DNA from: Candidatus Gottesmanbacteria bacterium RIFCSPHIGHO2_02_FULL_39_11
GTDB taxonomy: Bacteria; Patescibacteriota; Microgenomatia; 2-02-FULL-39-11
DNA: 64,000 nt
NCBI GenBank assembly: GCA_001779195.1
Contig: MFJL01000026.1
Span: 3,226-67,225, forward strand
Reading direction: 5' to 3'
Shown: positions 6,250 through 58,046 of the stretch, in pieces
How the letters are laid out: each line of letters opens with the position of its first letter
Numbering within the stretch: position 1 is the first letter of the stretch
Notes under the pieces: generated by a model
The model's database searches: none
Seen by the model: only the letters and a program-made list of their open reading frames with translations
What the model was told of the DNA's origin: nothing
Position numbers and translations under genes: made by a program

Positions 6250-6465
6250 TTATGCTTCTAAAACGGTATAGGGCATACCCGACAGTGCAGTGATAATATC
6301 GGACACTTTCAACTCATTGCTGCTTGTTATCGTCGTTTCTCCGTTATTGTTTTTAATCGCCACATCTGTAACTCCTGTAAGCCTTCCCACTTTTTTCTTA
6401 ATCAATTTGACACAAGCTTCGCAGGTTATCCCTGAAATTTTTAAAGTTAAAGTGTAATTATTCAT
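6250..6465 (-). CDS. copZ: copper chaperone (HMA domain protein, CopZ-like)
   Basis: 71 aa with GITCEACV metal-binding motif; its start overlaps copA. Confidence 0.8.
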   Translation of the reverse strand: MNNYTLTLKISGITCEACVKLIKKKVGRLTGVTDVAIKNNNGETTITSSNELKVSDIITALSGMPYTVLEA

Positions 6466-8228
6466 AGAACTTTGATAACTCCCCGTGGTACACCCATTGC
6501 ACAGGTAATAGGATAATTTCCTTTTCCATTCGGGGTGAAATTGAAGGTAATTGTTTTACCTTTCGCCAAATATTGAGGATCATCTACCAGTCTTGGAATA
6601 GTTATGGTTCCCATGCACCCCGACCCGTTATCTTTAACATCTATTTCCATCCTTACCGGTGTTCCAGCTTTTACAGAAAACTCATTAGGAGAAATATCCC
6701 GGTCAGCAGTATATGTTGTTTTTATAACCTGTACGGCACCTTCCCGTTTTGCTTCTTGGGCAACAACGGGTTGTTGGACAGCTTGTTTTGCCCCTCCTCC
6801 ACAACCGCAACCGCCCGTCCCGCATGATACTCCGCTTTTTGCCGGCGGTGCCTGCGCAACTGCATCCGTACTTTTTTCAACTACATTAAAAACTCCCGTA
6901 TACATGCCCATACTGCATGAGAAAGGCAATCTTCCAACGTCTGTTGGGGTAAATTCTATGGTATTGTCACCTAATTCAAGATTTTTCCGTATGCCAAGGC
7001 GGGATATAATGATGGCACTGGCACACGTATTAGAATCAGTTGAGTTGATTTCCCATTTCACCGGAACATCTTTTACGACAGTAAATATATTCGGATTATA
7101 TCCGTTTGCCGACTGCGTCATCTTAACGACTTGAAAACCATCCACAATAGTATTGACAGAAGATGCAGCCAATACATTCTGATTAGAAGAAAAAAGATAT
7201 GCAGGAGATAATCCCATCAAATTTAATCCGTTTTGAGCATTGAAAAACGCTAGTATTGTAACGACAACACCGGCAAATTTGAAGAATTTTTGGGCAAAAT
7301 ATCCTTTGATGACGGATGTCACTCCTCCGACACCTAATAATCCGGGAGCAGTACCCAAAGCAAAAATACCCATGATGGTGGCCCCTCTGATAAAACTGCC
7401 GCTACTCATAGCCAAAAGCTGCATCGCTTGGGTAAAACCGCAGGGAAGAAAAAAAGTCAATCCGCCCAGGATGAATGCATTTTTATGACTGTATTCTTTA
7501 TTCTGCTGCTCTTTTATCCCCAACGCCTTACTTATTCCTGTTGGAAGAGTGAAATGGGCATTGCTGATCCTGGGAAACAGTCCGGTAAGTTGCAATCCGA
7601 GCATCAACATAACCAGAGCTACTCCCAAGGTAAGAAGACCTAAACCAAAGCCAGATAGCTGAAAAAATGATCCGATTAGGCCAATAACACCGCCCAGTAT
7701 TACGTAAGAGGTGATTCTTCCGAAATTAAAAAAAAGATGGGGTTTAAATTTTTCATACACTGATGCATTAGGATTTTTTTCTGAAAAACGGGCAGATACC
7801 CCAAGCACCAGACCTCCCACAAGCGCCATGCAGGTAGAGAGACCTGCGGTTATTCCTATCAGGAATATGGGTATCAGACCGGACGGACGGGAAATAGAAG
7901 TACTGAATAATTTGTTTAAACCAAATATATCGACAAGAATAAAAAGAAAGGAAAGCACAATAACTGAAATGATAATATCTTTGTAGTCATTAATGTTTTT
8001 AGAAAAAAGCGGTTTTTCCTCCTCGTAACCAACTTGATACCCTGCCCGCTCTACTGACTGTATAATTGTGCCATCATTTAAGTAGTTTTCGTGATAAAGT
8101 TCTGCACATTTTTTCCGCTGGGAAACGGTAACTTTTTTCACTCCGGGGATGTCTTTTAATTCATCCTCAATTAAAAGTTCGCAGGATCTGCAGTGCATTC
8201 CTTGAATTGGAACAGTAGTGATTCTCAT
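6462..8228 (-). CDS. fusion protein: N-terminal HMA domain, polytopic permease-like membrane domain, Cys/Gly-rich linker, two C-terminal cupredoxin-like domains
   Basis: N-terminal GMHCRSC HMA motif; ~8 predicted TM helices (TauE/SafE- or CcdA-like); GCGCGGG linker. Two tandem beta-rich repeats end in C..M motifs (SCSMGM, TCAMG) reminiscent of cupredoxin/CopC-like copper sites. Confidence 0.5.
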   Translation of the reverse strand: MRITTVPIQGMHCRSCELLIEDELKDIPGVKKVTVSQRKKCAELYHENYLNDGTIIQSVERAGYQVGYEEEKPLFSKNINDYKDIIISVIVLSFLFILVDIFGLNKLFSTSISRPSGLIPIFLIGITAGLSTCMALVGGLVLGVSARFSEKNPNASVYEKFKPHLFFNFGRITSYVILGGVIGLIGSFFQLSGFGLGLLTLGVALVMLMLGLQLTGLFPRISNAHFTLPTGISKALGIKEQQNKEYSHKNAFILGGLTFFLPCGFTQAMQLLAMSSGSFIRGATIMGIFALGTAPGLLGVGGVTSVIKGYFAQKFFKFAGVVVTILAFFNAQNGLNLMGLSPAYLFSSNQNVLAASSVNTIVDGFQVVKMTQSANGYNPNIFTVVKDVPVKWEINSTDSNTCASAIIISRLGIRKNLELGDNTIEFTPTDVGRLPFSCSMGMYTGVFNVVEKSTDAVAQAPPAKSGVSCGTGGCGCGGGAKQAVQQPVVAQEAKREGAVQVIKTTYTADRDISPNEFSVKAGTPVRMEIDVKDNGSGCMGTITIPRLVDDPQYLAKGKTITFNFTPNGKGNYPITCAMGVPRGVIKVL

Positions 8229-8289
8229 AAAATATCTATACCCATCTTACTCAGGTTTGCAACTAGAATAGTTGCAATAGCTCACTTAG

Positions 8290-8322
8290 CACTGTAAAAT
8301 TTTTTAAAAAAAATTTACAGTG
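8290..8322. promoter_or_regulatory. palindrome cactgtaaaa-AT-ttttacagtg, copy 2, ~65 nt upstream of the copper operon start
   Basis: Near-identical to 904-936. It is followed upstream by a second perfect palindrome tactgaaaaa-ggcg-tttttcagta (8336-8359) and a direct repeat ttttcagtatat (8351-8362, 8393-8404). Confidence 0.55.
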
Positions 8323-8639
8323 TAAAATGGGTTTATACTGAAAAAGGCGTTTTTCAGTATATATGCTGGAAAAACATATTTCAACCTCGAGTTTTTTCAG
8401 TATATTAGGTAATTTTAGTAATAACGACTATCTTACCAATACAGTTATTAAGATTTTATGAGTACCGGGCACAAAAAATTTATTCGTATTATTTCCTTTC
8501 CTTTTTCGTGATCTCCTTGGCGAAATAAATGATACCGAGAATAAGAAAAACAATAACTAATAACCATATCAGTGAACCAAATATTCCCCAGCCAGACATC
8601 ATATTTGAGTAATATCCCATCATAATAAGCCACCTCCTT

Positions 8640-10826
8640 TCAAATTGAAATTAAATCTTTTTCTGCTCGTTTTAATAATACTGCATTTGTCGCCACAATA
8701 ATTGATGAGATACTCATAAGAAGTGCTGATATTTCAGGCCGTAATGAAATACCAAACCCAGGATATAAAATACCTGCTGCAACCGGAATTGCCAGAAGGT
8801 TATAAATCGATGCCCAAAACAGATTTTGTTTCATTTTGCGCACGGTTGCTTTGGATAATTTGATTGCTCGTAGAATATCAGCAGGATCTGATTTCATTAG
8901 GACAACTTTCGCGGTCTCAATAGCAACATCAGTACCAGCGCCAATTGCAATTCCTATATCTGCTTGTGAGAGAGCCGGAGCATCATTGACTCCATCGCCA
9001 ACCATAGCAGTAAACTTACCTTCTTTTTGTAACTTCTTAATATATGAGGCTTTGTCTTCCGGCAACACCTCAGAGAATATTCTGTCTATAGTTAATTGCT
9101 TCCCAATTGCTTCCGCAGTTTTTTTATTATCGCCTGTTATCATGGCTACTTCCAACCCCAACTCTTTCATAGCTAGGATTGCTTCTTTGGCTGTTGGTTT
9201 AATCTTATCGGCTGCTGCCGCCACGCCTGCAACTTTGCCGTCAATTGCCAAAATCATTATGGTTTTGCCCTCAGATAATAATCGGTCAATATCTTTCTGG
9301 AGTGGAGTAATATCAACTTTCCGATCATTCATGAGCTTTATGGTTCCCACAAGAACGTGCCTGCCGGAAACATACGCTTCAACGCCATGACCAGCTAAGT
9401 TTTTGAATCCCGCAACTTCACCTAGAACAAGTTTTTCTTTCTCGGCTTTTTCCAAAATAGCGTGACTTAGAGGATGACTCGATCGCTTCTCAACAGAGGC
9501 AATAAACCATAGAACCTTTTTCTCATCGTGCGATACTGATAGTATATCAATCACGGTGGGTTTGCCTTCTGTCAATGTACCCGTCTTATCAAGAACCACT
9601 GCTTGGATTTTTGATACCTGCTCAAGCGTGGGGGCATCTTTGATGAGGATATTATGTTTGGCTCCAAGACCAGTGCCTACTGCTACGGCAGTTGGAGTTG
9701 CTAGTCCAAGTGCATCCGGACAAGCAATCACGACAGTTGAAATAGCAAAGGACAGCGCAACAAGAAGTGGTTGACCCAGAATAAAAAACCAAATACCGAA
9801 TGTCAAAAGCCCACCGCCTACGGCGATTATAACAAGATATTTGGCAAACTTATCTGCTAATTTTTGCCCGGGTGCTTTTGAGTTCTGGGCAGTTTCCACC
9901 ATTTTAACAATTTGGGCAAGAGCAGTATCTTCGCCAACTTTCGTGGCTTTGAATTTGACAGAGCCGGAAGTATTGATTGAACCACCAATAACCGAATCGC
10001 CTATATTTTTAGCCACCGGAATTGACTCACCAGTAACCAGAGATTCATCAATCGCCGTCTCTCCTTCGATAATCTCGCCATCGACTGGCACTTTGTCCCC
10101 TGGTTTAAGCATAAGAATATCGCGAGACTTAACTTGTGATGTAGGTACCATTTCTTCTTTTCCATCTTTCCAAAGCCTTGCTTGGGGAGGAACGAGGTTA
10201 AATAATGCTTGGAGTGCATCGGTAGTACCCCGCCGACTTTTCATCTCCATCCAATGGCCAAAAAGCACAAAGGTAATAAGCATTACAGAGGCTTCGTAAT
10301 ACGAATCATTACTGCCTAAAATAGTTAGGACAACACTAAATCCATAGGCCGCTGTGATCCCTACCGCAATCAAAACTGCCATATTGAGAGTCTTGGCTTG
10401 AAGTGCTTTATAAGTTGAATAAAGGAAGATCCATCCGGCGTAGAAAAATACGGGTGTGGTTAACAGAAACAGAAGCCACGGTACTGGAATTGGACTTGGT
10501 AAAGTTACTCCGATAATTTTCTCCCCAAGGGGGGAATACAGGATAATGGGGATGGAAAAAAGCAGAGCGAAAAAGAATTTATTTCGGATATCTTCTTCCA
10601 TCAACTTTGCCATTTCACGACCTGCCAATCCTCCGTGCTCCATCCCCATACTCATCGTCATACTCATCTTTAATTTTTCCCATGATGACATCCCAGAAGT
10701 AGGCTTCATGACATGTCCAGCTTCTAATTTCTCACTTCTGGCTTCCAGTTCCATCCCGCATTTAGGACATGAACCAGGAATATCTGAAGAAATTTCAGGA
10801 TGCATCGGACACGTATATTTTTGCAT
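8640..10826 (-). CDS. heavy-metal (Cu) P1B-type ATPase with N-terminal CPMHPE...CPKCGM metal-binding domain and Met-rich segment; non-canonical CPD TM motif
   Basis: YTCPMHPEISSDIPGSCPKCGM (HMBD-type), MSMTMSMGMEHGG Met-rich stretch, TM motif IACPDALGLATP (CPD rather than CPC/CPH), LDKTGTLT, GDGVNDAPAL. Confidence 0.85.
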   Translation of the reverse strand: MQKYTCPMHPEISSDIPGSCPKCGMELEARSEKLEAGHVMKPTSGMSSWEKLKMSMTMSMGMEHGGLAGREMAKLMEEDIRNKFFFALLFSIPIILYSPLGEKIIGVTLPSPIPVPWLLFLLTTPVFFYAGWIFLYSTYKALQAKTLNMAVLIAVGITAAYGFSVVLTILGSNDSYYEASVMLITFVLFGHWMEMKSRRGTTDALQALFNLVPPQARLWKDGKEEMVPTSQVKSRDILMLKPGDKVPVDGEIIEGETAIDESLVTGESIPVAKNIGDSVIGGSINTSGSVKFKATKVGEDTALAQIVKMVETAQNSKAPGQKLADKFAKYLVIIAVGGGLLTFGIWFFILGQPLLVALSFAISTVVIACPDALGLATPTAVAVGTGLGAKHNILIKDAPTLEQVSKIQAVVLDKTGTLTEGKPTVIDILSVSHDEKKVLWFIASVEKRSSHPLSHAILEKAEKEKLVLGEVAGFKNLAGHGVEAYVSGRHVLVGTIKLMNDRKVDITPLQKDIDRLLSEGKTIMILAIDGKVAGVAAAADKIKPTAKEAILAMKELGLEVAMITGDNKKTAEAIGKQLTIDRIFSEVLPEDKASYIKKLQKEGKFTAMVGDGVNDAPALSQADIGIAIGAGTDVAIETAKVVLMKSDPADILRAIKLSKATVRKMKQNLFWASIYNLLAIPVAAGILYPGFGISLRPEISALLMSISSIIVATNAVLLKRAEKDLISI

Positions 10827-10872: not shown

Positions 10873-11487
10873 CTATGTGAAACTATGTTTATATGATTCT
10901 GCAATAACTTGAACAGACGATTGGATGATAAGAAATGATATACCCAGTCCGACAAAAATATCCGGCCAGGCGGAATTAAAATAGGAAACTAATAATCCTG
11001 CACCAATAACTGCCACATTTGCCGTCACATCGTTTCTGGAACATATCCATGCTGACTTAACATTAATATCTTCTTTCCGATGCTTCATCAACAAAAGAAA
11101 ACTCACCAGGTTAGCAATCAACGCAACCACTCCTAAAAGGGTAATTGTTTCTGCTTGAGGTAGTGTCGGCACAATAATTCTAAGGATACTTTTATAGACA
11201 ACAAAAAATCCCAACAATAGCATAATTAACCCTTTGATAAGGGACGCCTTTGCCCGTAGGTTTGATGATTTATTCATTACGAGCAAACTTACTCCATAAA
11301 CCGAGGCATCTCCCAACATATCCAGCGAGTCACCCAGAAGCGCGTTTGAGGATGCGAGAATTCCGCCAATAAATTCGGCTATGAACATCACGAAATTAAT
11401 AGCCAAAACAATGATAAAAATTTGCTTCAGCTCTTTCTTTTTGGCTAGATCGAGTTCTTTGTTATCAAACTCACAACAGTCAGACAT
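10873..11487 (-). CDS. cation diffusion facilitator (CDF)-like transporter, transmembrane domain only
   Basis: The N-terminus matches CDF TM1-2 signature (FIAEFIGGILASSNALLGDSLDMLGDA). It is only 204 aa and lacks the ~90-aa cytoplasmic C-terminal domain of CzcD-type CDFs. Confidence 0.5.
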   Translation of the reverse strand: MSDCCEFDNKELDLAKKKELKQIFIIVLAINFVMFIAEFIGGILASSNALLGDSLDMLGDASVYGVSLLVMNKSSNLRAKASLIKGLIMLLLGFFVVYKSILRIIVPTLPQAETITLLGVVALIANLVSFLLLMKHRKEDINVKSAWICSRNDVTANVAVIGAGLLVSYFNSAWPDIFVGLGISFLIIQSSVQVIAESYKHSFT

Positions 11488-24029: not shown

Positions 24030-24204
24030 ACATTTATTATATACTACTTTTCATTTTTTTTGTTTTAGTCATCGCTTGATCAATTAATATATCAACAAAA
24101 AAGGATAAAAACATAAATCCTAAAATCCTCCACCCTCCAGGTGGGGATGACTATTAGGGTCTATTTCTCACCCAACTAACAAGAAATATTGTACCGTATA
24201 GTTG

Positions 24205-24582
24205 CTAAGTCATACGATAAATATATGCATCTTCGATGAAGTAGTTATTAATCGTATTTTTAGAAAATCTGATACCAGAAATAGCAGTTCTTCCGGTACT
24301 TATAGCTTTTTTTAGCATAACTACTAAATTGTTATTGGGACTTACTACAGATATGTCCTTAAGGGAAATAATATTATTTCCAAGATAACTCTGGATGTCC
24401 TGGTAAACCTTTAAAGGTCCTTCTTCGTCAACTCTGGAGGAAGATATGACATATTTCCAACTATCAGAATTTTGATCATAGAACCACATAGCTGCATTAA
24501 CAGGAAATTTTTTTGAATCTAAGTTTTTCAATAACGTTTTACCCTCCGTTATGTATTTATCTACCAATATTTTTGTATCCAT
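24205..24582 (-). CDS. hypothetical protein, downstream partner of HEPN-domain gene
   Basis: 125 aa; overlaps the HEPN gene by 22 nt; no nucleotidyltransferase GSxDxD motif. Confidence 0.3.
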   Translation of the reverse strand: MDTKILVDKYITEGKTLLKNLDSKKFPVNAAMWFYDQNSDSWKYVISSSRVDEEGPLKVYQDIQSYLGNNIISLKDISVVSPNNNLVVMLKKAISTGRTAISGIRFSKNTINNYFIEDAYIYRMT

Positions 24583-24977
24583 TGCAATACTCCTTTCCTT
24601 GAATCAGTGATTGATAGGATCATGTCTTCTGCTTTTTTTCGTTGGTGCTGTTCATAACGAGCATTTTCTGACCAATCCTTAGCAACACCCCAATAGGTAT
24701 CGAATGTCTTATCTGCTTTTATCTGGTTATTAAGTTTTATTTCTAGCCCTGCTCCTTTTATCAGTTTTTCCAACTCATGTGTGTAGATGTTGTCAAGTGA
24801 TTTTCTGTCTAAAGGGAAATCGCCTTTCCTCGTTTTTCTAGCTATGCATGCTTTAAGTGCACACTCGATTACATATCCACTAATATAATACGCTCCCGAA
24901 TAATGACCCTTTTTTAGAAGAATTTGTGCTTCTTTTAATCGTATCGTTGATAGTTTTTTAAAGAGTAATCTATTCAT
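24561..24977 (-). CDS. HEPN-domain protein
   Basis: GYVIECALKACIA helix and overall 4-helix pattern of the classical HEPN domain; 138 aa. Confidence 0.5.
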   Translation of the reverse strand: MNRLLFKKLSTIRLKEAQILLKKGHYSGAYYISGYVIECALKACIARKTRKGDFPLDRKSLDNIYTHELEKLIKGAGLEIKLNNQIKADKTFDTYWGVAKDWSENARYEQHQRKKAEDMILSITDSRKGVLQWIQKYW

Positions 24978-25162
24978 AGAATTAAAAAAATAGATTCAAA
25001 TACATTTTAACATATCCGTGAAAGAGTGAGACTTTCCGAAGTGTTCACGTTGTTGATGTGATGGTCAAACTTAGGTATACCCAATCAAATCCTCTACCCT
25101 CCAGGTGGAAATGATAATCTTTTCTTCCATATTATTTTCACCCTTGCTCTGAGTGAGCTGTA

Positions 25163-26212
25163 TTACCTTTCTATGTAATCGTCATTTTTCATCGAAGGAT
25201 CAAGATCAACATAAAAATTTCTTTCCCAGGCATGATGTTTCAATTTTTCCATAAGTTGACCTGTTAATTTACGACCATCCGAAACGGATGCATTATCATC
25301 GACATATTTTACTTTTCTTGTTCCGGGGATAACTGTGGAAATTTCATCAAAAGAAAGTATCCAACGAAGAGCTAATTCCGGTAAAGTTTTTGCCTCGTTT
25401 CCTAAAAGTTTTTCAAGTTTTTTAATTCTTGGGATAAGTAACTTTAATCGTTCCTCACTAAAATATTTTGATCTCATATCGTCGTTAAACTTGCTTTCTA
25501 GTGTAAGTTTTCCGGTTAAACCTCCTTCGTCTCGTGGTACTCGAGCAATTAAACCGACGTTATGCTTTTTGGCAAATGGCAGAAGTTTTTCTGTAGGTTT
25601 TTGGTGAAAAATATTAAAAATAAATTGTATAGTACCAATTAAGCCTGTTTCTAAAGTTTTGAAACAGTTACTTGGTTGGTAATCGTTAATAGAAATTCCC
25701 CAGTATTTTACTTTCCCCTTTTTTGTAATACTCTGTATTTCTGATTTCCAGTCATCCTCTTCCACAAACTGATCTTGCCAGACGTGGAATTGCATGAGAT
25801 CAAGCGAGTCAATCTTTAAACTCTTTAGAGAACTATCAACCATTTTTTCAATATAACCTTTTGGAAATACTTCTGAAATCGGCACACCTCTCCATGCTGG
25901 CCATTTGCGGTTTTTACCGGGAATCTTGGAGGCGATAATTATCTTTTCTCTGTTACCCGACTCTTTAATAAACTTACCGATCAATTCTTCTGAACAATGT
26001 TTTCCTTGTTCATCACCTGGTTCATCAACTCTACCATAAACCCAAGCCGTATCTATAAAATTGCCTCTTAGCTCAACGAAACGATACAATGCTCTCATGC
26101 TTTCATTTTCATCCGGCGCATCCCAACCCCATGGTTTGCCCGCAAGTTGCCATGTACCCATACCAACTTCCGAAACTCGTAATCCTGTTTTACCAAGTGT
26201 TCTGTATTTCAT
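25163..26212 (-). CDS. aldo/keto reductase family oxidoreductase
   Basis: N-terminus YRTLGKTGLRVSEVGMGTW plus typical AKR length and (alpha/beta)8 pattern. Confidence 0.8.
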   Translation of the reverse strand: MKYRTLGKTGLRVSEVGMGTWQLAGKPWGWDAPDENESMRALYRFVELRGNFIDTAWVYGRVDEPGDEQGKHCSEELIGKFIKESGNREKIIIASKIPGKNRKWPAWRGVPISEVFPKGYIEKMVDSSLKSLKIDSLDLMQFHVWQDQFVEEDDWKSEIQSITKKGKVKYWGISINDYQPSNCFKTLETGLIGTIQFIFNIFHQKPTEKLLPFAKKHNVGLIARVPRDEGGLTGKLTLESKFNDDMRSKYFSEERLKLLIPRIKKLEKLLGNEAKTLPELALRWILSFDEISTVIPGTRKVKYVDDNASVSDGRKLTGQLMEKLKHHAWERNFYVDLDPSMKNDDYIER

Positions 26213-26233
26213 ATTTTTATCTTAGTATATTCA

Positions 26234-26316
26234 AATCCTCCAAAACCCTCCACCCTCCAGCCAAAACCCTCCAAAAACCCTCCACCCAAACCCTCCACCC
26301 TCCAGGTGGAAATGAG
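26234..26316. repeat. C-rich degenerate tandem array (AAACCCTCCA-like units, ~6 copies) ending in hairpin cctccaccctccaggtgg; G-rich on the minus strand
   Basis: Seen directly. The minus strand reads GGAGGGTGGAGGGTTTGGGTGGAGGGTTTTTGGAGGGTTTTGGCTGGAGGGTGGAGGG with at least 8 GGG tracts. Single-unit copies of the terminal hairpin lie at 24123-24144 and 25087-25108, each just 3' of a minus-strand gene. Confidence 0.7.
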
Positions 26317-26348
26317 TCCACACCTGCTTTTTATTTTTTTCAGAATCT

Positions 26349-26422
26349 TGGCTGCCCAGCTTGGATTCGAACCAAGATACCATCCTCCAGAGGGACGTGT
26401 CCTACCGTTAGACGACCGGGCA
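26349..26422 (-). tRNA. tRNA-Gln (anticodon CUG), CCA encoded
   Basis: Hand-folded cloverleaf: acceptor TGCCCGG/CTGGGCA, D-arm GTCT..GGAC, anticodon stem CGTCC/GGATG with loop CTCTGGA, T-arm CTTGG-TTCGAATC-CCAAG, and 3' G-CCA. Confidence 0.75.
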
Positions 26423-26481
26423 ATAATAATGAAATATCCTAACGATTGTATCATTTTTCTGCTAAAATCGGGATAACTCTT

Positions 26482-27192
26482 ATGTCCAGGCTCGTTACTC
26501 TCAAAAAAGAACTCAACTCTTTAGGCAGTTCCCAAAAAGCAAAAGCGTCGGCATGGTTTTTTAAAACCGGAAAAGGTGAATACGGAGAAGGAGACAAATT
26601 TATAGGGGTAACCTTACCGGAACAAAGAGGTATAGCCAAAAAATATTTCGATCTTCCGCTTAAGGATATTGAAAGACTATTAAATAGTCCTATTCACGAA
26701 CACAGATCAGTTGCTCTTATTATCTTGGTCAACCAATACCAAAAATCCGATAAAAAGAAACAAAAAGAAATTTTTAACTTCTATCTTTCACATACAAAAA
26801 GAATTAATAACTGGGATTTAGTCGATTGTTCAGCCGGATATATCGTAGGGGGATATTTAATTGATAAGCAGGTTACCATTCTCTCTAAATTAACAGAGTC
26901 TAAAAATATATGGGAAAGGCGTATTTCGATACTTGCAACTTTTAAATTTATATACAACGGCAGATACAAAGAGACATTTCTTATCGCAGAAAAACTTTTG
27001 GCTGATAAACATGACTTGATCCATAAAGCTGTCGGATGGATGCTTCGTGAGACGGGAAAAAGATGCGGTGAGGACATTGAAGAGGAATTTCTAAAAAAGC
27101 ATTATAAGAAAATGCCAAGGACTTCCCTGAGGTATGCTATCGAAAGGTTTTCAAAAGAAAAGAAATTTCAGTATCTTAAAGGTTTAGTTTAA
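26482..27192 (+). CDS. DNA alkylation repair enzyme (AlkD/AlkC-like HEAT-repeat glycosylase family)
   Basis: N-terminal KASAWFFKTG...VTLPEQRGIAKKY and WDLVDCSAGYIVG motifs typical of the DNA alkylation repair family (from memory). ATG at 26482; an alternative TTG at 26446. Confidence 0.65.
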   Translation: MSRLVTLKKELNSLGSSQKAKASAWFFKTGKGEYGEGDKFIGVTLPEQRGIAKKYFDLPLKDIERLLNSPIHEHRSVALIILVNQYQKSDKKKQKEIFNFYLSHTKRINNWDLVDCSAGYIVGGYLIDKQVTILSKLTESKNIWERRISILATFKFIYNGRYKETFLIAEKLLADKHDLIHKAVGWMLRETGKRCGEDIEEEFLKKHYKKMPRTSLRYAIERFSKEKKFQYLKGLV

Positions 27193-27231
27193 AATCACTA
27201 AGCGGGTGACCCGGAATCCAGTTGCAGGGCA

Positions 27232-28626
27232 ATGCAGGAAAGAATGAAGAAAAAAAATTTAATCCTATGGTTGATTTTACTTTTCGCGTTTATTTTTTAC
27301 TCCTCGTCTCTTTCCTTCTTTTTCATATCAGATGACTTTTTTCATATAAGTTTTAATCGCCTGGCTGAAATTTTTAAAATCAGTCCTTCGTATAACCACT
27401 ACATTCCTGTTTTTTTAAGTTCCCTTTTTATTATAAAAAAACTTTTTGGAACTAATCCTTTTGTCTTTCATTTGTATGTAGTTTTACTGCATATTTTAAA
27501 TATTTTTCTGGTATATGTTTTTACAAAAGAATTTTTAAAAAGTTCACGAAAAGCACTCATTGTTTCTCTTCTTTTTTCTTTTTTCTACTCCCACTATGAA
27601 GCAGTTTACTGGATCACGGGAACGACAAATTCTCTTATGACTTTGTTTTATTTATTATCCCTTATTTCGTTTCAAATGTTTACTAAAACAAGAAAAAATA
27701 TTTGCTTGGTTTTTACAGGAGTACTAATACCCCTCGCATTTCTCTCCCATGAGCATGCAATCACATTAATTCCAATAATTATCTGTTATGGAATTTACAG
27801 AAAAGTTAGAGTTAAGAATTACAAAATTCTCCTCCTGCCTATATTTCTGTTTTGTTTTATCTCAATTTTAAAAATTGAAAATACTCATTTAGAGGTGGTA
27901 AAAATAGCAACTTTTTCTCAATTCTACCAATCCGTTATTAGATCAAATATATATCTGTTAATTCCTATTCCATTTATAGTAGATAACATTCCGAAAGGAA
28001 TACCCCTGCTTGCTTTCTTAATTTTAATGATTATTATCTTTATATTAATAAAAAAAGAAACAAAACTTTTGTTCTGCTTAATTTGGCTGGAAATTCACAT
28101 ATTGCTTTTTTCATCAACCAGCCTTCCTCAGCCGAGATATTTTTATTTGGCATCCATACCGGCACTCTGTTTAATTATATCTTTCCTCTCTTACTTTAAG
28201 AAAAACGTGCAGTTTGTGCCTTATATGTTTCTACTTATCGGTTTTATTATTTTCCTATCAAATAGAAGCAGGGAATGGAAAGAGACAAGTATGATTATGC
28301 GCCAAACAATAACTTCTTTAAATACTATGTACTCAAGATTTTCTAAAGATAAAAAAGTATATTTTGTAAATCTTCCCGATTCTCTTAATGGACCTCCATG
28401 GAACGCGTATCTGTTTAGAAATGGAGTTGAAAGATTAATTGAATATGCATCTGGAATACTCCCTAATAATATTTATTATCTGAAGACAGTGAAAAATAAT
28501 ATATTACTTAGAAATGATCCATACATTAATACTAAAGAATTATATAGAATAAATAATTCAGCAGTTATGTTGTATAAAGAAGGAAAATTGTATTTTAGTG
28601 AGAGAAAAATAAAAGAAGAAAAATAA
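27232..28626 (+). CDS. large polytopic membrane protein, putative GT-C-type glycosyltransferase (ArnT/PMT-like)
   Basis: More than 10 predicted TM helices; an N-terminal FISDDFFH acidic loop motif is reminiscent of GT-C glycosyltransferases. Weak. Confidence 0.35.
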   Translation: MQERMKKKNLILWLILLFAFIFYSSSLSFFFISDDFFHISFNRLAEIFKISPSYNHYIPVFLSSLFIIKKLFGTNPFVFHLYVVLLHILNIFLVYVFTKEFLKSSRKALIVSLLFSFFYSHYEAVYWITGTTNSLMTLFYLLSLISFQMFTKTRKNICLVFTGVLIPLAFLSHEHAITLIPIIICYGIYRKVRVKNYKILLLPIFLFCFISILKIENTHLEVVKIATFSQFYQSVIRSNIYLLIPIPFIVDNIPKGIPLLAFLILMIIIFILIKKETKLLFCLIWLEIHILLFSSTSLPQPRYFYLASIPALCLIISFLSYFKKNVQFVPYMFLLIGFIIFLSNRSREWKETSMIMRQTITSLNTMYSRFSKDKKVYFVNLPDSLNGPPWNAYLFRNGVERLIEYASGILPNNIYYLKTVKNNILLRNDPYINTKELYRINNSAVMLYKEGKLYFSERKIKEEK

Positions 28627-29375: not shown

Positions 29376-29466
29376 TGTCATTCATAACTTCATGTGCGAT
29401 CAAACATAGACTCCCGCCTTCCCATAAAAACTCTAACGAGTTTTCAGGGTAAACGCGGGAATGACA
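29376..29466. repeat. palindromic intergenic repeat, family A module (TGTCATTC ... GGGTAAACGCGGGAATGACA), inverted orientation
   Basis: The same ~55-nt core recurs at 52741-52797, 55583-55635 and 57927-57985. Confidence 0.7.
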
Positions 29467-34769: not shown

Positions 34770-36158
34770 TTATCTATTTTTAATCACTTTAATCCCCAAC
34801 TCTTTTAGCTGTTCACTAGAAAGCTGATTGGGAGCATCCATGACGGACGTTCTTCCTCCTGATGTCTGAGGAAAAGCAACTACTTCACGCAAATATTGCT
34901 CATTAGCCAGCATCATAATTAATCTTTCAACTCCAAAAGCGCATCCGCCGTGAGGAGGCGCCCCATAGGAAAATGCCTCCAGCATGTGTCCGAATTTTTC
35001 CCATATTTCTTTTTTTTCGTATCCCAGTATTCCAAAAACTGCTTCCAGAATCTCAGGACGGTGAGCTCTAGTGCTTCCTCCTCCTACTTCAAACCCATTA
35101 CAGACTAAATCATATTGAGTTGTAAGAATACCTTCAATATTTCGCTTATTTAATAAGTCCTTAATAAATTCATCTTTGGGTTTTGAAAACGGATTATGGG
35201 TAAATGTCCATTTTCCTTCTTTGTCTTTTTCAAAAAATGGAAAATCTACAACCCATGCAAATGCTTTTACTCCGTTTTTCTTCTCTTCTTCATTTCTTAA
35301 ATCGAATTTGTCGCTTGCAAATTTTTCCATTGCTTCTTTATAGGTAAGTACTGGAAATGGTTTTTGTTTTATTTTAACGTCAAAACTTTCAAAAACCTGC
35401 GTAATCATTTCCTCCAAAATTTCCATCACATCTTCCCTTTCTATAAAACTCATTTCCAAATCAATTTGGGTATGTTCAAATCCCCGGTCAGCGCGCAAAT
35501 CTTCATCGCGCAGACACCGTGCAATTTGGAAATATCTCTCAAATCCGGCTACCATCAGAAGCTGTTTATATTGCTGGGGTGATTGAGGAAGTGCGTAGAA
35601 ATTTCCCTGCTGAAGTCGGGAAGGTACGACAAAATCCCGCGAGCCTTCAGGAGTTGACTTAGTCAAAAGAGGAGTTTCAATTTCACAAAAATCTTTTGAA
35701 AAAAGAAATTCGCGGACCTTTTGTACAAACTGAGAACGAAGTCTGATGTTTTTAGTAAGTCTGTCTCTTCGAAGATCCAGATATCGATATTTTAATCTCG
35801 ACTCTTCGTTAACATCGTATCCATCGCCGTCAATTGGAATCGGTAATTCTTTTGCTTTTGATACAATCTCAAGGGATTTTATCTCCACTTCGACTTTCCC
35901 GGTTGCTATTTTAGGATTTACCATTTTAACAGGTCTCTCTTTAACCAAACCGGCAATTTTCACAACATCCTCAGTTGTTATATTTTCTTTAAGGTTGACT
36001 CCTACACATTGGATAAACCCGCTCCTGTCGCGAAGATCTATAAACATGACTTTTCCATGATCACGCCGGGTCGCGACCCATCCCATGAGAGTTACTTCTT
36101 TTCCAACTTCTCGAACTGAGTCAGCAATTAATATTCGTTTCATAAATACTCTTGTCAT
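34770..36158 (-). CDS. aspS: aspartate--tRNA ligase, archaeal/eukaryal-type (possibly non-discriminating)
   Basis: Class II motifs, QSPQQYKQ signature of Asp/Asn synthetases, C-terminal GGGSTRAHR...GAPPHGGCAFGVERL; ~460 aa. Confidence 0.75.
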   Translation of the reverse strand: MTRVFMKRILIADSVREVGKEVTLMGWVATRRDHGKVMFIDLRDRSGFIQCVGVNLKENITTEDVVKIAGLVKERPVKMVNPKIATGKVEVEIKSLEIVSKAKELPIPIDGDGYDVNEESRLKYRYLDLRRDRLTKNIRLRSQFVQKVREFLFSKDFCEIETPLLTKSTPEGSRDFVVPSRLQQGNFYALPQSPQQYKQLLMVAGFERYFQIARCLRDEDLRADRGFEHTQIDLEMSFIEREDVMEILEEMITQVFESFDVKIKQKPFPVLTYKEAMEKFASDKFDLRNEEEKKNGVKAFAWVVDFPFFEKDKEGKWTFTHNPFSKPKDEFIKDLLNKRNIEGILTTQYDLVCNGFEVGGGSTRAHRPEILEAVFGILGYEKKEIWEKFGHMLEAFSYGAPPHGGCAFGVERLIMMLANEQYLREVVAFPQTSGGRTSVMDAPNQLSSEQLKELGIKVIKNR

Positions 36159-36203
36159 CCCCGCAATGGATCCTTCTCCCGTCAGGGCGGGGTCAGGATG
36201 ACA
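36154..36203. repeat. palindromic repeat, family D (TGTCATCCCCGC...GCGGGGTCAGGATGACA)
   Basis: Hairpin with TGTCATCC/GGATGACA termini; related copies at 38960-38997 and 55513-55540. Confidence 0.7.
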
Positions 36204-38911: not shown

Positions 38912-38997
38912 TGTCATTCTGAGCGGAGCGAAGAATCCCGACCGATTGCATAATCCCAACGGGATCCTTCCCCCCGCGAACGGGGATCAGGATGACA
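38912..38997. repeat. composite palindromic repeat (TGTCATTCTGAGCGGAGCGAAGAATCC + family D module)
   Basis: Sits between recJ and PEPC; seen directly. Confidence 0.7.
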
Positions 38998-43393: not shown

Positions 43394-43494
43394 TGTCATT
43401 CCCGCGAAGGCGGGAATCCAATCATTTAGATAAAAATACTAATAATAAAACTTATTTATTAAGGAGTGGATCCCGGGTCAAGCCCGGGATGACA
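43394..43494. repeat. composite palindromic repeat (TGTCATTCCCGCGAAGGCGGGAATCC ... GGATCCCGGGTCAAGCCCGGGATGACA) between secD and secF
   Basis: Two hairpin modules with an AT-rich spacer fill the 117-nt secD-secF gap. Confidence 0.7.
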
Positions 43495-47524: not shown

Positions 47525-47631
47525 ACGACTTACTATGTAAGTCGTCATCCTGAACTTGATTCAGCCTGCCTGCCGGCAGGCAGGGATCCAGAAATTAACT
47601 AACTGGATTCCGGGTCAAGCCCGGAATGACA
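47525..47631. repeat. composite palindromic repeat (hairpin acgacttac/gtaagtcgt; GTCATCCTGAAC...; cctgcctgcc/ggcaggcagg; GGATTCCGGGTCAAGCCCGGAATGACA)
   Basis: Several perfect hairpins concatenated, seen directly. Confidence 0.7.
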
Positions 47632-52740: not shown

Positions 52741-52826
52741 TGTCATTCCCACGTTTACCCTGAAAAGTTCGCTTTTTAGGGAAGGCGGGAATCCATCCTG
52801 GATCCCGGATCAAGTCCGGGATGACA
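52741..52826. repeat. composite palindromic repeat (family A + family B modules) between leuC and leuD
   Basis: TGTCATTCCCACGTTTACCCTGAAAAGTTCGCTTTTTAGGGAAGGCGGGAATCC + TGGATCCCGGATCAAGTCCGGGATGACA. Confidence 0.75.
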
Positions 52827-53445: not shown

Positions 53446-53471
53446 GATCCTGAAACAAGTTCAGGATGACA
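53446..53471. repeat. palindromic repeat, family C (GATCCTGAAACAAGTTCAGGATGACA) between leuD and leuB
   Basis: Perfect hairpin ATCCTGAAC/GTTCAGGAT; the same unit recurs at 59205-59231. Confidence 0.7.
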
Positions 53472-55512: not shown

Positions 55513-55635
55513 TGTCATCCCCGACCAGATCGGGGATCCACTCATTAATAAATAAGTTTTATTCTAAGATTTTTTAAGGATTGGATTCCCGCCTGCCCTA
55601 AAAAGCGAATTTTCAGGGTAAACGCAGGAATGACA
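55513..55635. repeat. composite palindromic repeat (family D + inverted family A) between ilvE and ridA
   Basis: Seen directly. Confidence 0.7.
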
Positions 55636-57926: not shown

Positions 57927-58046
57927 TGTCATTCCCGCGTTTACCCTGAAAAATTCGCTTTTTAGGGCAGGCGGGAATCCATCGATGGATCCCGGGTCTC
58001 GGAACAATTCTGTCGAATTTTCCGAGTAAACAAGCCCGGGATGACA
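57927..58046. repeat. composite palindromic repeat (family A + expanded family B) between ilvC and thrC-like gene
   Basis: Seen directly. Confidence 0.75.

Follow-up and report, generated by a model that had tools for sequence, protein, structure and literature searches.

The 64-kb stretch of DNA analyzed here (hereafter the window) comes from a Candidatus Gottesmanbacteria population of the Rifle aquifer, a member of the Microgenomates within the Candidate Phyla Radiation (CPR), and carries three copies of a short hairpin motif beside its tRNA-Gln gene. We consider it probable that these are hairpin elements of the repetitive extragenic palindrome (REP) type, related to a pair that flanks, elsewhere, a Y1 transposase gene resembling those of REP-associated tyrosine transposases (RAYTs), and that the tRNA-proximal copy has been expanded by slippage. 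REPs are small mobile elements that encode no protein and depend on a domesticated transposase for their copying, and what we propose is such a known kind of element, not a new mechanism. This reading is favored because the same core flanks a single-copy Y1 gene in inverted orientation in a contig of another bacterium, because the architecture is common to a second hairpin family in the same genome, and because the copies are extragenic at 3′ ends, as described for REPs. A preliminary description of this DNA had proposed a G-quadruplex (G4) element, a recombination (att) core or a terminator family; none of the three is the common denominator of the copies, and the link to the Y1 transposase and to the larger hairpin family lay beyond its view.

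Anatomy of the three copies

The 18-mer CCTCCACCCTCCAGGTGG occurs at three sites on the + strand, exact at 24127–24144 and 26292–26309 and with one mismatch (C to T) at 25091–25108. All three lie in the same orientation within 2.2 kb; chance would give 0.02 occurrences in 64 kb, and none of 100 shuffles reached three. No further copy is present in the 64 kb at up to three mismatches, and an nhmmer profile built from five sequences revealed no additional divergent copy in the window. The copies are the following.

24117–24150 (within 24117–24173), minus strand: copy 1 core, AGTCATCC-CCACC-TGGAG-GGTGG-AGGAT, after a gene pair that encodes a HEPN-domain protein and a 125-aa protein
25081–25143, minus strand: copy 2, core 25081–25114 plus block 2 at 25130–25143, beginning ~20 nt after the stop codon of an aldo-keto reductase (AKR) gene
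26282–26315, minus strand: copy 3 core block, head CTCATTT and hairpin CCACC-TGGAG-GGTGG
26233–26316, C-rich on the + strand and G-rich on the minus strand: C-rich array (copy 3 expanded), with the loop, 3′ arm and tail (TGGAGGGTGGAGGGTTT) reiterated

Alignment of the copies defines an invariant block of ~30–34 nt, which reads TCATYYCCACCTGGAGGGTRGAGGRTTT on the minus strand and contains a CCACC-N5-GGTGG imperfect palindrome. The preliminary description had located both solitary copies correctly and had taken the repeat as 22 bp, shorter than this conserved block. Read 5′ to 3′ on the minus strand, the unit has (T)GTCATYY as its head, CCACC-TGGAG-GGTGG as its hairpin and AGGATTT as its tail; the head is TCATYY across the three copies, and copies 2 and 3 carry degraded versions of it. 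A weakly conserved second block (block 2; TATTTYTCACCC on the + strand, GGGTGARAAATA on the minus strand) lies 13–20 nt upstream of the head on the minus strand, at 24161–24173, 25130–25143 and 26330–26343 by reading the sequence, and is able to pair with the 5′ arm of the hairpin. The core hairpin is weak to moderate, with predicted energies between −4 and −13.5 kcal/mol on the minus strand and copy 1 the best of the three (−13 kcal/mol). The C-to-T change in copy 2 and the longer pairing with block 2 create G·U pairs on the + strand and A·C oppositions on the minus strand. Because the substitution keeps pairing, as G·U, on the + strand only, it hints that the C-rich (+) strand may be the folding one, which three copies cannot establish.

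All copies are intergenic. They lie 33–61 nt beyond the 3′ ends of tRNA-Gln, the AKR gene and the HEPN gene pair: the array ends 33 nt from the 3′ end of tRNA-Gln and starts 22 nt from the AKR ATG, between the two as first described, and the solitary copies sit 55 nt beyond the AKR stop (copy 2) and 61 nt beyond the stop of the 125-aa gene (copy 1), inside the 50–80 nt previously given. A coding explanation was rejected: the motif reads NPPPSRWK* in one + frame that has neither an open reading frame nor a start.

A related hairpin pair flanks a Y1 transposase gene

In a contig of an unclassified uncultured bacterium (L006/L208, GC 0.41), the exact 18-mer precedes the start of a 223-aa gene by 42 nt, and a second copy, the 14-mer core CCACCCTCCAGGTG, follows 29 nt after the stop of the same gene on the opposite strand. 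CCACCCTCCAGGTG is found twice in the 20.7 kb of this contig, and the inverted arms extend to 37 nt with 78% complementarity. The 223-aa product is predicted to be a Y1 HUH transposase of the IS200/RAYT-like kind: it matches Pfam Y1_Tnp at 32.9 bits (cut-off 23), its sole NCBIfam match is ‘REP-associated tyrosine transposase’ (REP_Tyr_transpos, 43.4 bits), and its translation contains the HxH motif, as NHFH, together with RYIHLNP, a motif that includes a tyrosine. As the 18-mer was seen once in the genome of that bacterium in a scan of GTDB genomes, the transposase gene is likely single-copy, as RAYTs are. The layout of the locus would then be that of a REP-associated transposase with its REPs.

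The similarity between the two organisms continues outside the 18-mer, with ATCC upstream, the GGGTG block and a GGATTaTTT tail. The heads in the transposase contig, degraded like those of copies 2 and 3, read TGTAATT and TGTCA..ATCC, and its downstream copy resembles the window copies over ~50 nt, comprising the GGGTG block, a spacer, the head, the hairpin and a GGATT.TTT tail. Because nearly all other matches are in high-GC DNA and the similarity extends past the 18-mer, this match does not appear to be due to chance.

The other collections searched gave a consistent picture. The genome scan covered one genome per GTDB species, using the 18-mer with Y at the variable position, and returned 66 single matches, mostly at GC ≥0.55; those inspected run through coding sequence. 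JGI metagenomes yielded 114 single 18-mer matches, every contig having GC ≥0.45, and no match to the 22-mer. Only two low-GC 18-mer matches emerged, the transposase contig (L006) and one Algoriphagus contig (L042, GC 0.42). Viral contigs contained no match to the motif and no relative of the transposase, and blastn against plasmids and phages likewise found no motif match. Since these collections gave only chance matches in GC-rich coding DNA plus one informative locus, the motif is rare and lineage-restricted, and is no common terminator or regulatory signal of CPR bacteria. It had been suggested that finding the 22-mer at hundreds of loci with no link to a tRNA or island would speak against a special role; outside this organism we saw single chance matches and the one informative locus. 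Our literature search found no paper on repeats in Gottesmanbacteria and none describing REPs in CPR. Rfam reported the tRNA as the only match at gathering threshold in the whole window, and nothing else at E ≤ 5 between 23900 and 26500.

A second hairpin family in the same genome

A larger set of hairpins, which we call family 1, was noticed as the string GRATGACA located 8–13 nt 5′ of many start codons. The reverse complement of this string, the head TGTCATYC, occurs 19 times in the window against 4.0 expected, a count that none of 100 shuffles reached, and 16 of the 19 heads belong to intergenic GC-rich hairpins such as TGTCATTCCCGCGAAGGCGGGAATCC and TGTCATCCCGGGCTTGACCCGGGATCC. All but two of these 16 hairpins are arranged in seven inverted doublets of 51–116 nt with their heads outward (at ~29.4, 36.2, 38.9, 43.4, 52.8, 55.6 and 58.0 kb), which often end 8–13 nt before a start codon. 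Six different stem sequences are present, all complementary. Family-1-like units also occur in a Patescibacteria contig (L090) at 6363–6445 and 15036. The sites in the window are as follows.

29376–29466; 36153–36203; 38912–38997; 43394–43494; 47624–47631; 52741–52826; 53464–53471; 55513–55635; 57927–58046: family-1 sites

Copy 1 and the family-1 unit at 55513 have identical heads and share GTCATCCCC, and copy 1 can be described as a unit that keeps the family-1 head and foot (ATCC...GGAT) and has another inner stem. On this ground, the motif of the three copies appears to form a small subfamily within a REP/REPIN-like superfamily. No family-1 unit is present in positions 1–29 kb of the window or in a further 7 kb to the left, which sets the DNA left of tRNA-Gln apart from the core genome.

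Weighing the REP-type assignment

REPs are extragenic imperfect palindromes of about 21–65 nt (PMC6006769), and the 30–34-nt block is within this size range and palindromic. The likeness to REP/REPIN–RAYT systems (PMC2817692, PMC3116915, PMC6006769) extends to the conserved head 5′ of the hairpin foot, the inverted copies around a single-copy Y1 transposase gene in the other organism, the REPIN-like inverted doublets of family 1 with stems that vary yet remain complementary, and the location at 3′ ends. REP-type units would be made and spread as single-stranded DNA by an HUH/Y1 REP-associated transposase encoded elsewhere; mobilization by such a Y1 enzyme is suggested by published REP biology. 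REPs ‘increase mRNA stability and cause transcription termination’ (PMC6006769). By analogy, the copies may have side effects at 3′ ends, either as a barrier to 3′ exonucleases that stabilizes mRNA or through partial termination, and could have been hot spots of recombination while the accessory patch described below was being assembled.

Several observations weigh against the assignment. The classical GT[AG]G head 5′ of the hairpin foot is absent and a different one, (T)GTCATYY, is present, and the core stem spans only 5–6 bp. Classical REPs are numerous and dispersed, whereas here there are three clustered, direct copies, with none in 7 kb more of sequence and one of them expanded to a tandem tract; dispersed inverted doublets, which characterize REPs, are seen in family 1 and not among the three. 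Five copies are known in all, too few for a statistical covariation test, and the RNA folds no better than shuffles except for copy 1 (z = −2.5). Neither the window nor 7 kb beyond it contains a Y1 transposase gene. The 223-aa transposase itself reaches 43 bits where the NCBIfam RAYT cut-off is 80, no PDB sequence matches it, and in ~30 kb inspected of its genome only the two flanking copies were seen. A further difference from known systems is the host, a CPR bacterium with a probably small genome; CPR genomes are small, and repeats are expected to be scarce in them.

The ends of IS200/IS605 elements and their palindrome-associated derivatives offer a second comparison, for their subterminal hairpins are recognized as single-stranded DNA by a Y1 HUH transposase, and the co-oriented hairpins in the window bracket cargo as left and right ends do. 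In the transposase contig, by contrast, the hairpins are inverted, the transposase gene is single-copy, and no conserved target tetranucleotide can be defined.

The position of the copies, 33–61 nt past three 3′ ends and in the orientation of the genes, is equally what one would see if they formed a family of terminators or RNA 3′-end hairpins with no link to mobile DNA, each ending the upstream unit before the promoter of the next gene. A −10-like box (TATACT, TATAAT) near the next ATG in each spacer suggests that the genes probably have their own promoters, most genes here lack a Shine–Dalgarno (SD) sequence, and the minus strand of copy 1 is the one that folds better than shuffles. This explanation is nevertheless unlikely, since the stems formed on the minus strand have little stability (−4.0 to −13.5 kcal/mol), the substitution in copy 2 breaks the stem on the transcribed strand and pairs as G·U only on the opposite one, and no U-tract directly follows the stem, a GGA preceding the short U run on the minus strand. 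At the copies, a terminator scan called a single site, at 26306–26321 on the + strand, and no minus-strand copy, and terminator-like sites are not enriched in the region (9 against 7.6 expected). A terminator family also leaves unexplained the inverted 14-mers around a transposase gene in another organism, as well as the absence of the motif from all other 3′ ends in 64 kb. What stands of the earlier terminator proposal is the position; the short stems and the missing U-tract do not fit it.

The C-rich array as a probable expansion of copy 3

Tandem Repeats Finder places a tandem tract at 26233–26305, with periods of 7, 11, 13 and 21, confirming that the C-rich array noted beside tRNA-Gln is real. 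Copies 3 and 2 are collinear on either side of the expansion (TCATTTCCACCTGGAGGGTGGAGG, the expansion, then ATTTGA..TATAC.TAAG). Because this collinearity with copy 2 continues beyond the block, we read the array as copy 3 with internal reiteration of TGGAGGGTGGAGGGTTT-like units, and not as a separate entity. Slipped-strand reiteration of the loop, 3′ arm and tail of copy 3 would have aligned four GGG tracts by chance. The entire spacer between the tRNA and the AKR gene, array included, is identical in six independent assemblies, with no variation in length. Two further features map to this region.

26278–26300, minus strand: canonical G4 motif (G3N1–7), GGGTGGAGGGTTTGGGTGGAGGG, the sole one in the window on either strand
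26303–26340, + strand: hairpin CAGGTG...CACCTG followed by CTTTTTATTTTTTT, terminator-like on the + strand only

The T-run CTTTTTATTTTTTT is ambiguous, as it is also the copy 3 counterpart of block 2 in copies 1 and 2.

In 83 nt, the minus strand of the array contains 16 tracts of two or more G, 8 GGA motifs (one of them located in the hairpin loop) and 7 GGG tracts, one short of the minimum of eight first reported; the window has a GC content of 38.8% (34% locally), where ~36% had been given for the genome. The array scores highest by G4Hunter in the window (−1.84). A functional G4 in minus-strand DNA or in read-through RNA, insulating tRNA-Gln from the AKR gene or tuning an AKR promoter ~5 nt downstream, could draw on this score, on the uniqueness of the canonical motif in 64 kb, on the placement of the array at −22 to −105 from the AKR ATG on the non-template strand, and on its unchanged length in the six assemblies. 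We nonetheless hold such a role to be highly doubtful. The solitary copies contain no canonical G4 motif, so that the family would go unexplained; the tract is accounted for by reiteration of the GGAGGGT-containing hairpin arm; competing hairpins draw on the same G-runs; and the relative discussed below has no array that would lend comparative support. The earlier G4 proposal thus holds for the one motif in the array and not for the solitary copies and, because of the latter, the capacity to form a G4 seems to have come with the expansion of copy 3 and not to define the family.

The array resembles contingency-locus minisatellites and promoter G4s in that its 7–21-nt tandem units stand immediately 5′ of a gene start and its non-template strand carries G3 tracts. 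It differs in showing no length change in six assemblies and in having imperfect units derived from a hairpin repeat.

The same region might instead act as an RNA sponge, either as a C-rich small RNA from the + strand with CCUCC anti-SD-like seeds that ends at the 26303–26340 terminator, or as a GGA-rich decoy of the CsrA/Rsm type from the minus strand. Though an unstructured C-rich tract followed by a hairpin and T-run on one strand and 8 GGA motifs on the other, one in a hairpin loop, are what such RNAs would need, we judge this extremely improbable: an SD-like motif precedes only 8 of 55 genes, leaving few anti-SD targets; no CsrA-like open reading frame was found in the window at E < 0.1; there is no convincing + strand promoter and no Rfam match even at E = 5; and the solitary copies lack the terminator. 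An SD or standby-site role for the array was also rejected, as 27 nt separate the AKR ATG from the last GGAGG and SD sequences are rarely used in this genome.

Many genes of the window have a TATAAT-like box 6–12 nt before the ATG (e.g. 29787, 31267, 39000, 40700, 47844 and 48737), which suggests that mRNAs in this genome may be leaderless or have very short leaders.

Gene content around tRNA-Gln and the cassette alternative

The genes next to the copies are listed below.

26349–26422, minus strand: tRNA-Gln (CTG), where housekeeping DNA (right) meets accessory DNA (left)
25163–26212, minus strand: AKR gene, bracketed by copies 3 and 2
24561–24977, minus strand: HEPN-domain gene, overlapping the 125-aa gene; the pair is bracketed by copies 2 and 1
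24205–24582, minus strand: 125-aa gene, overlapping the HEPN gene (pair 24205–24977)

On the minus strand, tRNA-Gln is followed by the AKR gene, the HEPN and 125-aa genes, two genes for unknown proteins (53 aa and 204 aa), NUDIX and Phd/ParE, beyond which come more small unknown genes and then metal-resistance genes. To the right of tRNA-Gln are housekeeping genes, among them AlkD, PMT, UppP, Era, GltX and AspS. The AlkD and AKR proteins match those of Candidatus Gottesmanbacteria bacterium RIFCSPHIGHO2_02_FULL_39_11 at 100% identity. Judged by its predicted genes (toxin–antitoxin modules, NUDIX, small unknowns, metal resistance), the DNA left of tRNA-Gln is accessory.

The closest available relative (L079; AlkD 77% identical) keeps tRNA-Gln, AlkD, PMT, UppP, Era and NUDIX. 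Between tRNA-Gln and NUDIX it has only a non-orthologous HEPN gene, with neither array nor AKR. The comparison of tRNA-Gln flanks called for in the preliminary description therefore reveals a difference in gene content, from which no ancestral state can be reconstructed. AKR homologues 70–90% identical are scattered over many CPR lineages. Because the modules are absent at the site in the relative and the AKR homologues are so scattered, the motif-bracketed modules appear to be accessory and were probably acquired horizontally.

Homologues of the AKR and of an LD-carboxypeptidase (lists P0121–P0240 and P0241–P0360) are 65–97% identical across many CPR lineages, and a DPANN archaeon bin contains a further homologue of the carboxypeptidase; such high identity in divergent hosts suggests frequent transfer or strong constraint. 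In the relative, two fragments of GIY-YIG endonuclease genes adjoin tRNA-Gln (L079, 8590–9060), each accompanied by a tRNA-like fragment copy (ATTCGGACCAATCCGCC..GGCGGACTCCAGAG), which suggests homing-endonuclease activity at its tRNA-Gln locus.

The order copy 3, AKR, copy 2, HEPN plus 125 aa, copy 1 means that direct repeats bracket exactly two modules, as would att-like scars of serial site-specific insertion of circular cassettes beside tRNA-Gln, or IS200/IS605-like ends that mobilize modules as single-stranded DNA. The absence of the modules from the site in the relative (tRNA-Gln, a different HEPN gene, then the shared NUDIX) agrees with this, as does the breaking of several assemblies at or near the array. 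AKR moreover looks like mobile cargo elsewhere: in the Patescibacteria contig L090, an AKR gene of 89% identity is enclosed by perfect inverted repeats of ~105 bp (9640–9745 and 11185–11290) that adjoin the gene for a 528-aa large serine recombinase (7903–9489), and the whole looks like an invertible or mobile AKR module.

Insertion scars are quite improbable even so. No recombinase is encoded in the ~33 kb on the left side or the ~38 kb on the right, and the Pfam tables list no integrase or transposase gene in the window or 7 kb beyond it. The motif is missing from the next junction, between the 204-aa gene and NUDIX. The window holds no duplicate of the 3′ end or half of tRNA-Gln; the palindrome, with 6-bp arms and a 5-nt spacer, falls short of the size that a tyrosine-recombinase core site needs; and no empty-site strain variant was found. 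The sole apparent swap proved to be a chimera. The earlier idea of an att core for a tRNA-adjacent patch retains its accessory DNA and loses the integrase, the tRNA-end duplicate and any real swap.

That apparent swap is a scaffold (L071; ENA ERZ28563803 scaffold_129617) identical to window positions 26204–28041 in which a peptidase S66 gene replaces AKR. It is a three-part assembly chimera, joined at window positions 26204 and 28041, and its two ends are both foreign DNA. The left part shares 97.8% identity with a conserved operon of another organism, also of the CPR (tRNA synthetase, peptidase, AdoMet decarboxylase and methyltransferase), and the left join falls inside a 21-nt AT-rich string, AAGATAAAAATATGAAATAC, common to both start codons. 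At its right end the scaffold passes, inside the PMT_2 gene, into unrelated and more GC-rich DNA, which encodes a HEFGHS metalloprotease motif.

Many contigs break in tRNA-Gln or in the array, and the repeats together with shared tRNA k-mers would suffice to cause such breaks. Two independent assemblies (L073 and L075; ERZ4903055 and ERZ27254752) share an alternative continuation after 28044 (GTAGTTATTGGACTGATG...), inside the PMT_2 gene (28041–28044), which reflects either true strain variation in the glycosyltransferase gene or a misjoin that recurred. In another (L077, positions 1–28; ENA ERZ4903070; window 26349–26375), the contig ends with the 5′ part of tRNA-Gln fused to another T-arm and acceptor 3′ strand, both GC-rich, and the new acceptor strand pairs poorly with the 5′ one. 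Either an element that integrated into the tRNA gene in some cells left a hybrid tRNA behind, or shared tRNA k-mers produced an assembly artifact.

The co-oriented accessory genes beside a tRNA, toxin–antitoxin genes included, with a repeated hairpin after each module, also recall tRNA-linked islands and integron attC arrays. The former differ in having an integrase and a direct repeat of the tRNA 3′ end, both absent here. In the latter, attC sites of 55–140 nt carry R″–L″/L′–R′ cores (RYYYAAC/GTTRRRY), are conserved only in structure, and need IntI and attI. Here there is no integrase, and the repeat is much shorter (30–34 nt), lacks R″/R′ cores, and is conserved in sequence rather than in structure only. 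A dif/Xer-like site was rejected because the arms are too short; to our knowledge, the motif bears no resemblance to known dif sites.

A variant of the cassette idea would have a Y1 transposase act in trans on the co-oriented hairpins, using them as left and right ends, with modules excised and pasted as single-stranded circles that stack beside tRNA-Gln, and with the G4-capable expansion marking the preferred entry site. We think this very unlikely; if true, such a trans-acting Y1 gene-capture system would be neither an integron nor an integrase island. Overall, we regard att scars or cassettes, a functional G4 and a sponge RNA as improbable readings.

Implications

At the tRNA-Gln locus, the repeat and the adjacent tRNA break many metagenome assemblies and have seeded at least one chimeric scaffold, which matters for inferring gene flux. 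Copy 3 would be a clean case of a G4-capable tract born by slippage in a hairpin repeat, and warns against over-reading lone G4 motifs. The window carries about one REP-like hairpin per 3–4 kb. If the REP-type assignment is correct, it would extend systems of the REP/RAYT type, in which a domesticated transposase is paired with hairpin repeats, to the CPR, with a head, TGTCATYY, unlike the GTAG of known REPs.

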